Positions 1 to 7,031 of a stretch of DNA of 7,031 bases are shown in pieces; positions within the stretch are counted from its first letter, which is position 1; the number at the start of each line of letters is the position of its first letter. The notes below the pieces were generated by a model. The model saw nothing but the letters and a program-made list of their open reading frames with translations. It did no database searches and was not told the DNA's origin. The position numbers were made by a program, and so were the translations under genes. Source of the stretch: a virus (lineage: Duplodnaviria; Heunggongvirae; Uroviricota; Caudoviricetes); the IMG/VR virus record IMGVR_UViG_2693429623_000005, positions 1-7,031 of that record. One strand, given 5' to 3'.

Positions 1-138
1 TGCAGAGGCGTTCGAGCATTATAACGAATGGCATCCGCATAGTGCACTGGGTTATCGCTCGCCACGGGAATATCTACGGCAGCAAGCCAGTAATGGGTTA
101 AGTGATAACAGGTGTCTGGAAATATAGGGGCAAATCCA
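1..138 (+). mobile_element. IS2-like (IS3 family) insertion sequence, transposase-proximal terminus only; body of element lies upstream of window
   Basis: 117..138 (tggaaatataggggcaaatcca) is the exact reverse complement of 7010..7031. Sequence upstream of it encodes a transposase C-terminus. The terminal sequence matches my recollection of the IS2 right inverted repeat (one mismatch at ~105). Confidence 0.85.
2..127 (+). CDS. insD: IS3-family DDE transposase OrfB, C-terminal 41 codons (5'-partial)
   Basis: Frame 2 reads [41 protein letters not shown] then stop at 125..127. The HYN..RPHS.LGY..P.EY motif is the conserved C-terminus of IS3-family transposases. Confidence 0.8.
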
Positions 139-246
139 GCGTTCATCAGCCCCCGCATTGCCGACAGGATCACAGACGGGGGGCGCAACTGGTTGTCGTT
201 CAACTGGCCCAGCTACCGTTCTTGTATCAGAGGTGTGGCTGCATGA
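139..246 (+). pseudogene. 3' remnant (35 codons) of the gene upstream of the helicase, probably the replication initiator, truncated by the IS
   Basis: Open frame from the IS junction (139) to TGA at 244..246, which overlaps the helicase ATG (ATGA coupling). Identity as an O-like initiator is inferred from position only. Confidence 0.35.
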
Positions 247-1634
247 CAACACCAGTCTGGCGTAATGATGACCTGGAAGGCGCTGTCATTGGCGCATTCT
301 TTCTGCGTGGGGCAGATCATGAAGTGATGGATATTCTGATCACACTACCGGCGGACATTTTTTCTGTACGAGCGTATCGGGATATCTACACAGGCATCTG
401 CAGACAGGCCCGTGTTTCAGGAGTGATTGACCCCGTGCTGTTGTGTAATGAGATGCCGGAACTTGCCCCGGTGATTACTGATACCGGGCGTAAAACCTGG
501 GTGAAGTCTTCACTGGAGCACTATGTTGCAGCGTTGCGGCGCAATGCCGCACTGCGCGATGCAGAAAAAACACTGAATGAGGCGCTGCAGAAATTACGTG
601 ATGCGCATACCTGTGAAGCAGCTGAAGATGCCCTGAAGGATGCGCAGAACATGATGGTCACACTGTCGACAGGAAAGGGCGTCATTCAGCCGGTACATAT
701 TGATGATGTGCTTCCGGAAGTGGTTGAGCGTGTTGAATGCCGGAATCAGGGGCTGGAGAAATCCAGGACGTTGATGACCGGTATTGATGAACTGGACGCA
801 AAAACAGGCGGTATGGAGCCCGGAGACCTGGTATTCATTGCCGCCCGTCCTTCGATGGGGAAAACCGAACTTGCGCTGGACATCATCGACAAGGTGACTG
901 AGCAGGGGCATGGTGTGCTTCTGTTCACCATGGAGATGGCGAACATCCAGATTGGTGAACGTATGGTGTCTGCGGCTGGAGGGATGCCAGTATCACGCCT
1001 GAAATCTGTGGCTCACTTTGAAGATGAAGACTGGGCGCGTTTCTCACAAGGGGTGGGGCGGATGACCGGGCGCAATATCTGGATGGTGGACCAGGCGAAC
1101 CTGACCATTGATGAGATATGCGCAACAACGAAACACCATCTGATTAAACATCCGGAAACGGCGCTGGTGGTGGTTGATTATCTCGGGCTGATAAAAACCC
1201 GAACCACGGGGCGTCATGACCTTGCCGTGGGTGAAATCTCAAAGGGGCTTAAAGGCCTGGCAAAATCCGGTGGTTTTCCGTTGATTGCGCTGAGCCAGCT
1301 CTCCCGCGGTGTGGAGTCCAGACCCAATAAACGTCCCATGAACTCAGACCTGAAAAATTCCGGAGAAATAGAGGCGGATGCAGACATCATTCTGATGCTT
1401 TACAGGGATGAAGTGTACAACCCGGATACACAGGCTACAGGCATAGCAGAAATTAATATCACGAAACAACGTAACGGTTCTCTGGGGACGATTTACCGGC
1501 GTTTTTATAACGGACATTTTCTGCCTGTGGACCAGGAAAGCGCACAGGTTCTTTCCACCCCAATGCGGCAGCCCCAGCCGCGCAGATACAGCAATACACG
1601 TACCGACAGCAGTAAGATGGAGCGTTTCTTTTGA
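243..1634 (+). CDS. DnaB-family replicative DNA helicase (phage-encoded, P22 gp12-like), 463 aa
   Basis: Walker A ARPSMGKT, Walker B LVVVDYLGL, and SQLSRGVESRPNKRPMNSDLKNSGEIEADADIILMLYRDEVY, which closely matches the DnaB C-terminal motor. N-terminal domain LEGAVIGAFFL is DnaB-like. ATG at 243 chosen over the GTG at 102 in the ORF track, which would run into the IS end. Confidence 0.93.
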   Translation: MTTPVWRNDDLEGAVIGAFFLRGADHEVMDILITLPADIFSVRAYRDIYTGICRQARVSGVIDPVLLCNEMPELAPVITDTGRKTWVKSSLEHYVAALRRNAALRDAEKTLNEALQKLRDAHTCEAAEDALKDAQNMMVTLSTGKGVIQPVHIDDVLPEVVERVECRNQGLEKSRTLMTGIDELDAKTGGMEPGDLVFIAARPSMGKTELALDIIDKVTEQGHGVLLFTMEMANIQIGERMVSAAGGMPVSRLKSVAHFEDEDWARFSQGVGRMTGRNIWMVDQANLTIDEICATTKHHLIKHPETALVVVDYLGLIKTRTTGRHDLAVGEISKGLKGLAKSGGFPLIALSQLSRGVESRPNKRPMNSDLKNSGEIEADADIILMLYRDEVYNPDTQATGIAEINITKQRNGSLGTIYRRFYNGHFLPVDQESAQVLSTPMRQPQPRRYSNTRTDSSKMERFF

Positions 1635-1888
1635 ACAACCAGACAATGACTTTTACCTCTGAACAATTGCGTAAACACGCGCAGGAAATGTTGCGACAGG
1701 CGGAACAACTGGAAAAAACAGGTGTAACAAAAGATGCCATTCGTCGGGATATGGTGCCAGCGCTCAGGGAACTGATGCAGGCGAAACATCGCGCACAAAA
1801 AGCGGTGGATGAGCTCGTTGATTGTGTGGCAGAGCTGGAAACCAAAGTTGGAAAGTTTGAAAAAATGGTGCAGGAGGTGCTGCGCTGA
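1631..1888 (+). CDS. hypothetical small protein, predicted helical/coiled-coil (85 aa from TTG at 1631; alternative ATG at 1646 gives 80 aa)
   Basis: ORF fills the helicase-rusA gap exactly. Its TTG overlaps the helicase TGA, and its stop overlaps the rusA ATG (TGATG). Heptad-like charged sequence. No family recognised. Confidence 0.5.
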   Translation: MNNQTMTFTSEQLRKHAQEMLRQAEQLEKTGVTKDAIRRDMVPALRELMQAKHRAQKAVDELVDCVAELETKVGKFEKMVQEVLR

Positions 1889-2259
1889 TGCGCCATGAGT
1901 TTATTTTACCTTATCCGCCGACGGTGAATACTTACTGGCGACGTCGTGGCAGCACATATTTTGTATCAAAAGTTGGTGAGCGTTATCGCCGTGATGTGAC
2001 GCTAATTGTTCGCCAGCAGCGGCTGAAATTAAACCTGTCCGGAAGGCTGGCGATAAAGATTATTGCAGAGCCACCGGATAAGCGCCGTCGTGACCTGGAC
2101 AATATCCTGAAAGCACCACTGGATGCGCTGACGCATGCCGGACTACTCATAGACGACGAGCAGTTTGATGAAATCAATATTGTGCGCGGTCAGCTCGTTC
2201 CTGGTGGGCGACTGGGCGTGAAGATTTATGAAATCACAGGTGATAACGATGGCGCGTGA
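1888..2259 (+). CDS. rusA: RusA-family Holliday junction resolvase, 123 aa
   Basis: [16 protein letters not shown] ... [30 protein letters not shown] ... [11 protein letters not shown] matches the E. coli RusA pattern including the acidic catalytic residues (RRDLDN, DD). Start is coupled to the upstream stop. Confidence 0.9.
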
Positions 2260-2635
2260 TATTCAGCAGGTTATGGAACGGTGGGGGGCTTGGGCTGCAA
2301 ACACTCATGAAGATGTATCCTGGGCGTCGATCGCTGCTGGTTTTAAAGGGTTAATTCCGTCGAAAGTGAAATCACGCCCTCAGTGTTCTGATGATGATGC
2401 AATGATAATTTGTGGCTGTATGGCCCGGTTGAACAAGAAAAATCAGGATTTGCACGATTTGCTGGTGGATTATTACGTAGGTGGAATGACTTTTATGAGT
2501 CTGGCACGGAAACATGGGTGTTCGGATACCTGTATTGGCAAGCGCCTGCAGAAAGCGGAAGGGGTTATTGATGGCATGTTGATGATGCTTGATATCCGGC
2601 TGGAGATGGACAGATACGTAGAACGAATTATGTAG
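2249..2635 (+). CDS. late-gene antiterminator Q, Q933/QuuD type, 128 aa
   Basis: [17 protein letters not shown] ... [20 protein letters not shown] ... [23 protein letters not shown] matches the small Q family of Stx phages and DLP12 QuuD as I recall it. Lies directly after rusA as in DLP12. ATG at 2249 has an AGGTGA RBS 5 nt upstream; the ORF-track start at 2228 is also possible. Confidence 0.7.
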
Positions 2636-2639
2636 GTGC

Positions 2640-2669
2640 TTGACCAGACACATTGTCCGGGGCTATATT
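2640..2669 (+). promoter_or_regulatory. sigma70 promoter candidate immediately downstream of Q (PR'-like): TTGACC-18 bp-TATATT
   Basis: -35 TTGACC at 2640..2645 and -10 TATATT at 2664..2669, starting 5 bp after the Q stop. This is the position of the late promoter in lambdoid phages. Confidence 0.45.
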
Positions 2670-6053: not shown

Positions 6054-6056
6054 TAT

Positions 6057-6131
6057 GCGGGCATCGTATAATGGCTATTACCTCAGCCTTCCAAGCTGAT
6101 GATGCGGGTTCGATTCCCGCTGCCCGCTCCA
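6057..6131 (+). tRNA. tRNA-Gly (anticodon UCC), 75 nt with encoded CCA
   Basis: Acceptor gcgggca/tgcccgc, anticodon stem tcagc/gctga, loop cuUCCaa, T-stem gcggg/cccgc with loop ttcgatt. Confidence 0.85.
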
Positions 6132-6745
6132 GCGAGATTTGAGACGAAGGTTGTTATTTGCACTGACACAATATTGTGTGGGAATGTCTGACTCCTTACC
6201 ATCTCCTGTTCTGTGATGTTGTTTTGTTGCAGTTCCAGTGCTCTTTTTTCAGCACCAGAATGGTGCATTGTCGGTCAGGTTACGTAGTGAACCTCTGGCA
6301 GGGGACTGATAATGCATCATTCTGGTGTTGTAAATATCTCTTCGGACAACTTACAAAATATTCTAAGCAAACCCCGGGAACACACTCTTAACTGCCTTGG
6401 CTGGCGGTTTTTTGTACAGCGCTCGGTATGTGTGAGCTGGAAATCAGATTTTGCATGGACTGGAATCATGCTGTTATTTAGGGGCGAAGAACTGGCTTTT
6501 TCTTCCGCCTTCTCACCAGTAACGATTAGAAAAATAATGAAATGCCCCCCTCCGGGGAGGAGGACCGTAGAAAAAAGGACCCGCCAGCAAAAACATTGGG
6601 GATGAACAGCTTTCGCTACTCAGATTGCTGGCGGGTAAAGTTCCTCATGAATTAAGAATGCTACGCGATCTTTTTTAATGGAAATGAAAATTATTGTCAA
6701 TTAGTCGTGCGTGTTTTTTCATACAATATTGGTAAAGGTGATTCA

Positions 6746-6776
6746 GGCCATCAGAGTTTTGCTGATGGCCTTTTTT
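6746..6776 (+). terminator. strong intrinsic terminator 36 bp upstream of the holin start
   Basis: Perfect 9-bp stem ggccatcag (6746..6754) / ctgatggcc (6762..6770), loop agttttg, T-run 6771..6776. Confidence 0.7.
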
Positions 6777-6811
6777 CTTTCCGATAGCACAGGTCTGTCG
6801 GGGGGCGGGAT

Positions 6812-7009
6812 ATGTATCAGATGGAAAAAATATCAACAGGCATTGCCTACGGCACCTCCGCCGGCAGTGCCGGCTACTGGTTTTTGCAGTGGTTGGATCA
6901 GGTCAGTCCATCACAGTGGGCTGCGATTGGTGTGCTGGGAAGTCTGCTTCTGGGGCTTCTGACTTATCTGACGAATCTGTATTTCAAAATAAGAGAAGAT
7001 AAGCGTAAG
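6812..7009 (+). CDS. S: S21-like class II pinholin with dual start (Met1/Met4); native frame interrupted after codon 66 by the IS terminus at 7010
   Basis: Translation [66 protein letters not shown], then the frame continues into IS sequence (WICPYIS) with no stop before the window end. Matches the phage 21 S21 68/71 holin as recalled. Missing from the ORF track because there is no in-window stop. Confidence 0.8.
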
Positions 7010-7031
7010 TGGATTTGCCCCTATATTTCCA
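7010..7031 (-). mobile_element. IS2-like terminus of a second copy in inverted orientation; element continues beyond the window
   Basis: tggatttgcccctatatttcca is the exact reverse complement of 117..138. Confidence 0.85.

Follow-up and report, generated by a model that had tools for sequence, protein, structure and literature searches.

The window analysed here, a stretch of 7,031 nt, carries the same IS terminus near its left side and, inverted, at its right end, which raises the question of whether two IS copies enclose a segment of one prophage that could be inverted or deleted, as the original prediction proposed. The window was found to be the whole of the 7,031-bp draft contig CXCR01000186.1, end to end, which is, to judge from its sequence, a Shigella sonnei contig from the short-read Illumina draft assembly GCA_001259815.1. 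At a probability of roughly 85%, our answer is that the window combines the ordinary decay of Shigella prophages by IS2 with an assembly artefact that involves two prophages (here called A and B), the layout of this isolate being the one that it presumably shares with finished genomes. No 6.9-kb IS2-flanked invertible cassette exists. The identity of the contig, its N joints, the locations in finished genomes, the orientation of the elements, the target duplications and the SNP mosaic were all observed directly.

IS2 right ends at the window termini

The 22-nt terminus at positions 117-138 (TGGAAATATAGGGGCAAATCCA) recurs as its exact reverse complement at 7010-7031, with a spacing of 6871 nt. 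When up to two mismatches were allowed, the match was seen in none of 200 dinucleotide-preserving shuffles (0 expected by chance), and the inverted pair described earlier is thus confirmed. The 22-mer is the right end of IS2A, for which the annotated copy of E. coli K-12 (NC_000913.3, 381260-382590) served as the reference. Positions 1..138 (plus strand) represent the right end of an IS2 variant named isA, comprising the C-terminus of the insD transposase (last 41 codons at 2-124 with an rve_3 integrase-core match, stop codon at 125-127) and the terminal inverted repeat ending at 138. This part of the window shows 100% identity with the final portion of a 1331-bp element in a finished chromosome (L003:8566-9896; L numbers denote individual loci), which shares 97.6% identity with IS2A with no gaps and 32 differences, and which encodes a 121-aa protein (HTH_Tnp_1) and, in an overlapping gene, a 301-aa protein (HTH_21, rve, rve_3), matching insC1 and insD1 of K-12. 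The second right end, at 7010..7031 on the minus strand, belongs to a K-12-like copy (isB) inserted in the holin gene of prophage B, whose full sequence in prophage B loci is also 1331 bp long and 99.2% identical to IS2A without gaps. Seven isA-specific SNPs (window positions 46, 76, 84, 85, 88, 89 and 112) make the end at 1-138 unique, and because of them the window reaches further into IS2 on the left (138 nt) than on the right (22 nt).

Because the terminal inverted repeats of IS2 are imperfect, with just 12 of 22 positions shared between the left end and the right end, the two ends are distinguishable. Both window termini are the right, insD-distal end, and thus they are not the two ends of one IS. 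One IS supplying both ends of a circular or circularly permuted contig, an idea with nothing in its favour beyond having been raised earlier, was ruled out on this ground and has a negligible probability: the left end differs at 10 of the 22 positions, the two copies in finished genomes differ from each other at 25 of 1331 positions (98.1% identity), and the 138-nt end of the window matches one copy only. Hence, the presence of two different IS copies stands, as does their inward-facing arrangement within the contig, whereas the description of the inward end as transposase-proximal needs correction, since it is the transposase-distal 3' end (IRR) and not the promoter-proximal one.

Layout and insertion history in finished chromosomes

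The ten S. sonnei loci shown that carry an identical helicase (L001-L009 from chromosome-length records and L010, a 10.5-kb draft contig) have one layout in common: all ten run through window positions 1-3619, then directly to 5571-7009, and onward into a holin gene, intact at 71 aa, and a gene for lysozyme. In finished chromosomes, the first and last parts of the window are contiguous in prophage A, and the middle part and the IS2-cut holin are found in prophage B. The left junction maps to 3,070,363 and the right junction to 785,154 in S. sonnei 53G (HE616528.1), and the two map to 231,537 and 2,981,746 in CP032523.1. The pair predicted to bracket 6871 bp of one prophage therefore belongs to two prophages, and the distance between its members is 2.285 Mb in 53G and 2.75 Mb in CP032523.1 (2.28 Mb the other way round). 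Moreover, in both chromosomes the two IS2 copies share a strand (minus in the record), so that on the replicon they are in direct and not in opposite orientation; prophages A and B themselves are oppositely oriented on the chromosome. Among 5,426 complete E. coli genomes, none contained at least 80% of the window in one place. With the junctions in different prophages and N joints in the contig, the proposed ability of the pair to invert or delete the enclosed segment is unsupported.

At the right junction, the window contains codons 1-66 of a 71-codon holin gene (6812-7009, plus strand), a P21-type, class II holin of the phage 21 S type (PF04971, E=5.1e-35, residues 5-66), and the IS terminus does cut it as predicted, after codon 66. 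The intact holin gene of prophage A reads AAGCGTAAG up to the break and continues after 7009 with GCTGCGAGAGG. Three loci, L015, L024 and L027, all of prophage B, were the only ones with the exact 51-nt holin::IS2 junction (6981-7031). Flanking sequences from finished genomes allowed the target duplications to be compared as the original prediction had suggested, and the two copies gave different outcomes. The holin copy is flanked by GTAAG on both sides, a 5-bp target duplication, and removal of IS2 together with one GTAAG copy restores a 71-aa holin identical to the intact copies. It is a simple insertion, placed five codons short of the 3' end of the holin gene in prophage B. Two control IS2 insertions also have 5-bp duplications (TGTAC in L014 and ACTAC in L031), giving three independent insertions when the holin copy is counted. 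A prophage B copy with an intact holin (L018) was also observed, indicating that the holin insertion is polymorphic among strains.

The helicase-side copy is flanked by GTTGC and GCGTT and thus has no target duplication. It lies at the edge of prophage A and abuts a fragment of an autotransporter gene, which is non-phage DNA, and for these two reasons we regard it as a marker of an old rearrangement. We take the copy to record an IS2-associated deletion or rearrangement, a secondary event and not a fresh insertion, by which the left arm of prophage A was lost along with 257 codons of the adjoining gene. What is left of that gene, as predicted, is 35 codons (139-243, within a remnant spanning 139..246 with its stop codon, plus strand) of an IstB/DnaC-like ATPase, a probable helicase loader, cut by IS2. 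In E. coli RMDEC364, a 292-aa 'ATP-binding protein' that matches PF01695 (IstB_IS21, E=1.4e-15) and PF00308 agrees with the remnant at 34 of 35 positions in its residues 258-292. In this intact relative, the ATPase gene is directly upstream of the helicase gene and overlaps its start, and in the window the stop codon of the remnant likewise overlaps the helicase start codon. The helicase itself (243..1634, plus strand) is a DnaB-type replicative helicase of prophage A (PF03796, E=7.8e-73), and many finished S. sonnei chromosomes encode exactly this protein, with IS2 immediately before the gene.

Five finished genomes do have a real pair of inverted IS2 copies in prophage A, the right-hand one lying within an IS4 transposase gene at a distance of 11,089 bp downstream. 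An inversion between the helicase-side IS2 and this inverted copy 11 kb downstream (in L001-type genomes) was considered as the origin of the missing duplication and rejected: the swapped flank GCAAC that such an IS2-IS2 inversion should leave is absent, and the flank found is GTGTC.

Scaffold joints and origin of the three pieces

The deposited record of the contig (L011) has an N at positions 3568 and 5532, and the window shows A at both. The contig is therefore a scaffold of three pieces. Besides the IS2 end, loader remnant and helicase, the first piece (1-3567) contains a set of prophage A genes at 1631..2635 on the plus strand, namely a hypothetical 85-aa gene, the RusA resolvase (1888-2259, PF05866) and the Q antiterminator (2249-2635, PF06530), a region collinear with L001-L010 at 99.97%. 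They are followed by a small-RNA cluster (2663..3078, plus strand) of c4-a1b1, isrK, C4 antisense and sRNA-Xcc1, all with Rfam matches above gathering scores, located upstream of a gene with an ORF6N domain (3116..3607, plus strand, PF10543). The 3' end of this gene is artefactual: it encodes 163 aa here and 187 aa in the finished genomes (L001-L010). The chimeric 163-aa protein arising at the first joint was found in this contig only, among a collection of 153 billion gene positions, in the index of which the helicase occurs in 3506 blocks and Rem in 4517 blocks.

Several irregularities surround the first joint. Beside it the contig has one extra base relative to prophage A (a 1-base gap at 3569 against L001). 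A 38-nt exact duplication has its first copy at 3582..3619 (plus strand) and its second at 5533-5570, and prophage A has one copy only. The switch from A to B proper occurs at 3619/3620, inside the second piece and 51 nt beyond the N, where a 10-nt microhomology (3610-3619, TTTATCTGGA) connects the A sequence to the B sequence. The scaffolding scenario does not fully account for these 51 nt of A sequence.

From 3620 to 5531 the second piece is a prophage B block on the plus strand, encoding Rem (3632-3919), DUF1367 (3958-4557), YbcO (4557-4847) and a DUF1133 Q-like protein (4844-5398), as assigned by Pfam, followed by a terminator. The block (from 3610 if the microhomology is included) is 100% identical to prophage B, which lies beside modABC (L015, L018 and L027), and these loci run on from 5531 directly to 5721. 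It has neither a transposase nor terminal repeats of its own; its left edge is the 10-nt microhomology, and its right edge is an exact transition from unique to multi-copy sequence, the block ending 44 nt into sequence common to prophages A, B and C. The contig has two Q-type antiterminators, whereas each source prophage has one.

These features bear on the reading that the contig is correct as deposited and derives from a hybrid prophage, with the ORF6N gene interrupted by the Rem-DUF1133 block and 6871 bp enclosed by inverted IS2 copies. Prophage mosaicism through recombination is common, and both the deposited sequence and the microhomology at the first joint agree with a hybrid. However, each joint carries an N, the block is flanked by a 38-nt duplication of host-prophage sequence without mobility genes, the joint protein is unique to one contig among the 153 billion gene positions, and the right-hand border of the insert falls at the beginning of multi-copy sequence. 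A genuine insertion of Rem-DUF1133 in the ORF6N gene was judged unlikely because of the first three of these observations, and a hybrid prophage as a whole is very unlikely.

The second joint (5532) is the exact switch from B to A. The third piece continues on the plus strand (5533..7009) with the true 3' end of ORF6N (5533-5631), four tRNA genes (5821-6131) and the holin codons, and it is 99.73% identical to prophage A. Further examination revealed a mosaic of markers, with B-type variants at 6311, 6314, 6973 and 7000 and A-type variants at 6420 and in a poly-G tract at 6800, in the order B, B, A, A, B, B. A single crossover of A by B was therefore judged unlikely as its origin, since the order alternates.

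Such a mosaic could also be read as biology, in that only the middle piece was mis-scaffolded and recombination or gene conversion between A and B placed the holin::IS2 junction on prophage A, in which case about 4.9 kb of prophage A would indeed lie between inverted IS2 copies. The two prophages are oppositely oriented with late regions that are about 99.5% identical, positions 6266-7009 contain only five marker differences, and no N separates the A-only sequence at 5533-5720 from the B-only junction at 7009/7010; in addition, Shigella often shows large inversions between repeats. Nevertheless, the alternating order needs at least three exchanges in 744 bp, the holin is intact in each of the ten prophage A loci shown for S. 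sonnei, and a collapsed two-copy repeat yields the same pattern without any biology, which makes this reading unlikely. A real recombination of the A and B late regions in one isolate, making an IS2-flanked invertible cassette, is by our estimate distinctly unlikely, and it would accompany a chromosomal inversion of about 2.3 Mb because A and B are mutually inverted. If it were true, prophage A would have an inward-facing IS2 right end on either side, with the genes for the helicase, RusA and Q and those for the sRNAs and tRNAs between them.

Assembly scenario and comparison with known systems

In the preferred reading of IS2 decay plus assembly artefact, scaffolding and gap-filling would have joined three pieces out of near-identical lambdoid prophage remnants: a first from prophage A (IS2, loader remnant, helicase, RusA, Q and ORF6N), a second (3569-5531) mostly from prophage B, and a third (5533-7031) that represents a collapsed consensus of A and B, starting in A-only sequence and ending at the B-only holin::IS2 junction. 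The joins were probably made by scaffolding of the SSPACE/GapFiller type. A pipeline of Velvet, SSPACE and GapFiller has been applied to 299 S. sonnei isolates (PMC5320598); it marks joins made from read pairs with N, and it 'can lead to false joins'. Neighbouring CXB* accessions are S. sonnei drafts of Holt et al. (PMC5447701), and judging by the accession series we infer that the present assembly came from the pipeline of PMC5320598. According to the GapFiller paper, edges are trimmed by 10 nt and gaps are extended with 30-mers from both edges; the paper makes no statement on residual single Ns. An attempt to derive the k-mer size of the assembler from the 38- and 44-nt overlaps and the 138- and 22-nt reaches into IS2 gave mutually inconsistent numbers and no conclusion. 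With respect to the original prediction, which named a single IS in a circular or mis-joined contig as the finding that would overturn it, the mis-joined contig has essentially been found, but two IS copies are involved instead of one.

These results call for caution, as draft contigs of IS-rich genomes such as Shigella may be scaffolds with false joins. The two Ns are the only visible marks of scaffolding and were replaced by A in the window; therefore, its origin from at least two loci is invisible from the sequence alone. The underlying biology, IS2 disrupting the tail of a holin gene and IS2 at the edge of a deletion in a prophage replication module, is already well known for S. sonnei.

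Compared with known systems, the elements have the features of IS2 (IS3 family) of E. coli and Shigella, such as a length of 1331 bp, identities of 97.6% and 99.2% to IS2A, an identical right-end 22-mer and two transposase ORFs, but the helicase-side copy differs in being a diverged variant (32 differences from IS2A) without target duplication. As deposited, the contig resembles an IS-bounded invertible or composite-transposon-like segment, whereas in finished genomes the pair lies on separate stretches in direct orientation. It shares with the false joins of SSPACE/GapFiller assemblies (PMC5320598) the residual N at joins, a short contig of a repeat family placed between two adjacent contigs, a flank duplicated at closure and contig ends within multi-copy IS sequence, the difference being the stretch of prophage A sequence after the first N, only partly accounted for in this way. 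Finally, although its segment order occurs in none of the finished genomes examined, the window agrees with the decay of lambdoid prophages by IS elements in S. sonnei (e.g. 53G), in that every segment is present at 99.7-100% in finished chromosomes, where numerous IS1, IS2, IS4 and other IS3-family elements interrupt the prophage remnants.

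IS2 right ends and the genes that they cut

The 22-nt sequence TGGAAATATAGGGGCAAATCCA occurs at positions 117-138 of the window, and a repeat search located the same 22 bases in exact inverted form at 7010-7031. No further match to this 22-mer was found in the window when up to two mismatches were permitted, and 200 shuffles that preserved dinucleotides gave none at all. Because these two matches are the only ones, shuffling did not reproduce them, and the C-terminus of a transposase (41 residues of the integrase core, rve_3) is encoded at 2-124, the inverted repeat is real and not a chance occurrence, as originally predicted. 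The full elements owning both ends were taken from finished S. sonnei chromosomes. Both are 1331 bp long and align without gaps to the E. coli K-12 MG1655 element annotated as 'insertion sequence:IS2A', with identities of 97.6% for the helicase-side copy (isA) and 99.2% for the holin-side copy (isB); isA and isB share 98.1% identity. The bases at window 1-138 are exactly those of isA and show seven differences from isB and from K-12 IS2. Between the first 22 nts of IS2 and the reverse complement of its last 22 nts, just 12 positions agree, and it is the right, insD-distal end that is present at each window terminus. Since the left end is distinct, the two termini cannot be those of one IS on a circular contig.

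The original reading that a gene upstream of the helicase is left with 35 codons and that the holin is cut was correct at both ends. The 35 codons at 139-243 are identical at 34 of 35 positions to the C-terminus (residues 258-292) of a 292-aa protein of E. coli RMDEC364, which matches the IstB_IS21 and DnaA ATPase domains and whose gene overlaps the helicase gene start, the same arrangement as that of the window remnant. The gene cut at 139 encodes an AAA+ protein of the IstB/DnaC-like type that belongs to the replication module. At the other junction, IS2 interrupts the holin gene (PF04971, E=5e-35) after codon 66 of 71.

Probable origin of the contig from separate prophages

Only one contig encodes the 163-aa ORF6N protein of the window, namely CXCR01000186.1 of assembly GCA_001259815.1, which is 7031 bp long and has the same extent as the window. 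Compared base by base, the two differ only at 3568 and 5532, where the deposited contig has N and the window shows A. Because of these Ns, the window is an entire draft contig in which three pieces (1-3567, 3569-5531, and 5533-7031) were scaffolded together; the scaffolding marks were hidden from the original prediction by the substituted A, and the window ends inside IS2 because the assembly stopped there. Neighbouring CXB* accessions are S. sonnei drafts of Holt et al. (PMC5447701), and CXCR01000186.1 was probably made by the Velvet, SSPACE and GapFiller pipeline used on 299 S. sonnei isolates (PMC5320598), in which an N is placed where read pairs link contigs and whose greedy tools 'can lead to false joins'.

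The exact helicase protein is present in many S. sonnei chromosomes, including HE616528.1 of strain 53G (PMC5447701). Prophage A is a remnant common to all ten S. sonnei loci shown, of which nine are in chromosome-length records and one is in a draft contig of 10.5 kb. In it, window 5571-7009 (99.73% identity) comes straight after 1-3619 (99.97% identity), and beyond these lie a complete holin of 71 aa and genes for lysozyme, Rz, and terminase. The segment 3610-5531 (Rem, DUF1367, YbcO, and DUF1133) is absent from prophage A and 100% identical to a second remnant, prophage B, adjoining modABC, which resumes directly at window-equivalent 5721 without 5532-5720. A third remnant, prophage C (ttcA side), is identical over 4417-5531 and 5721-6132. 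The exact left junction was found in prophage A loci only, and the exact 51-nt right junction (6981-7031) in prophage B loci only (L015, L024, and L027). These junctions lie at 3,070,363 and 785,154 in 53G, 2.285 Mb apart, and at 231,537 and 2,981,746 in CP032523.1. Because prophages A and B are oppositely oriented, isA and isB lie on the same chromosome strand in these two genomes, as direct repeats. The proposal that they bracket an invertible segment of 6871 bp was therefore not borne out: the real copies are 2.3 Mb apart, direct and in different prophages, so that recombination between them would not invert a prophage segment.

Several features of the contig are signs of false joins. An N lies at or beside each source switch (3568 and 5532); the A-to-B switch at 3619/3620 rests on the 10-nt microhomology TTTATCTGGA, and the B-to-A switch is located at the second N. 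The inserted piece lacks a transposase and terminal repeats of its own. On either side of it stands an exact 38-nt copy of prophage A sequence (3582-3619 = 5533-5570), and it stops exactly 44 nts into a block common to prophages A, B, and C, where an assembly-graph node would end. Among 5,426 complete E. coli genomes searched, matches break off exactly at 139 and 7009, and none holds at least 80% of the window in one place. The ORF6N protein is made by the joint and unique to this contig; in contrast, 3506 blocks of the indexed collection contain the helicase and 4517 contain Rem. Two Q-type antiterminators are present in the contig versus one per source prophage. In piece 3, B-type markers (6311, 6314, 6973, 7000, and the IS2 junction) alternate with A-type ones (6420 and the poly-G at 6800), which is the pattern of a collapsed two-copy repeat. 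A real A/B hybrid late region in the isolate would need several exchanges to produce this alternation, and we give it roughly one chance in ten. Judged by the layout of finished genomes, which stands in for that of this isolate, the 6.9-kb segment between the two IS2 ends is most probably an artefact of assembly.

IS2 events at the two junctions

Target duplications, originally proposed as a check on independent insertion, were sought in the finished genomes and found at one copy only. The holin-side IS2 has GTAAG at both flanks, and removing the IS with one GTAAG copy gives back a holin identical to intact ones; this copy is therefore a simple insertion. Two unrelated IS2 insertions, used as controls, have 5-bp duplications (TGTAC and ACTAC). 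The helicase-side IS2 has GTTGC on the left and GCGTT on the right, without a 5-bp duplication (L003:8561-8565 and 9897-9901; window 139-143), and the DNA to its left codes for part of an AIDA-type autotransporter (459 aa) and for no phage genes. This copy therefore marks an IS2-associated deletion or recombination by which prophage A lost its early region; no partner junction for the rearrangement was found.

Five finished S. sonnei chromosomes (loci L001, L004, L005, L007, and L009) do contain two IS2 copies in true inverted orientation, their right ends pointing inward. This pair flanks 11,089 bp of prophage A, from the helicase to the portal region (L001:8566-9896 and L001:20986 onward), and the downstream member, of K-12-like sequence, lies within a gene for an IS4 transposase. 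Inversion with this downstream copy was considered for the missing duplication and rejected, since the flank of that copy is GTGTC and not the one that a swap would predict.

The biology under the window is ordinary. Independent IS2 events struck two lambdoid prophages of S. sonnei that are in decay: one truncates a class II holin in its cytoplasmic tail, and the other lies at a deletion edge within the probable helicase-loader gene.

Other elements, tRNA genes and RNA families

In prophage B loci L015, L024, and L027, another IS3-family element, with a 389-aa transposase, lies between window-equivalent 5891 and 6266 and replaces the equivalent of 5892-6265, with three of four tRNA genes gone; this stretch of the window therefore comes from prophage A or C only. 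The four tRNA genes (CAT, Arg-TCT, Thr-TGT, and Gly-TCC) are located at 5821-6131, upstream of the holin; the first is tRNA-Met according to ARAGORN, and its homologue in E. coli RMDEC364 is tRNA-Ile according to RefSeq. At 6246-6334 lies an inverted repeat of 31 nt with imperfect arms (84% complementary) and a 27-nt loop; two of the A/B marker SNPs, 6311 and 6314, are in the right arm, and the left arm contains the edge of the prophage B deletion, 6265/6266. In a 57.8-kb contig of a sister draft assembly (CXIN01000012.1), an IS3-family element cuts DUF1367, beyond which lies a second replication module (DUF1376, IstB-like, DUF1627, and DUF977); this arrangement could be a further IS-mediated join or a further false scaffold.

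Four Rfam families, all above the gathering score, follow one another at 2663-3078, flanked by the genes for the Q antiterminator and the antirepressor-like ORF6N protein: c4-a1b1 (2663-2715), isrK (2676-2752), C4 antisense RNA (2778-2861), and sRNA-Xcc1 (2995-3078). This RNA cluster looks like a P1-type c4/ant immunity-like module at the position of a lambdoid late promoter.
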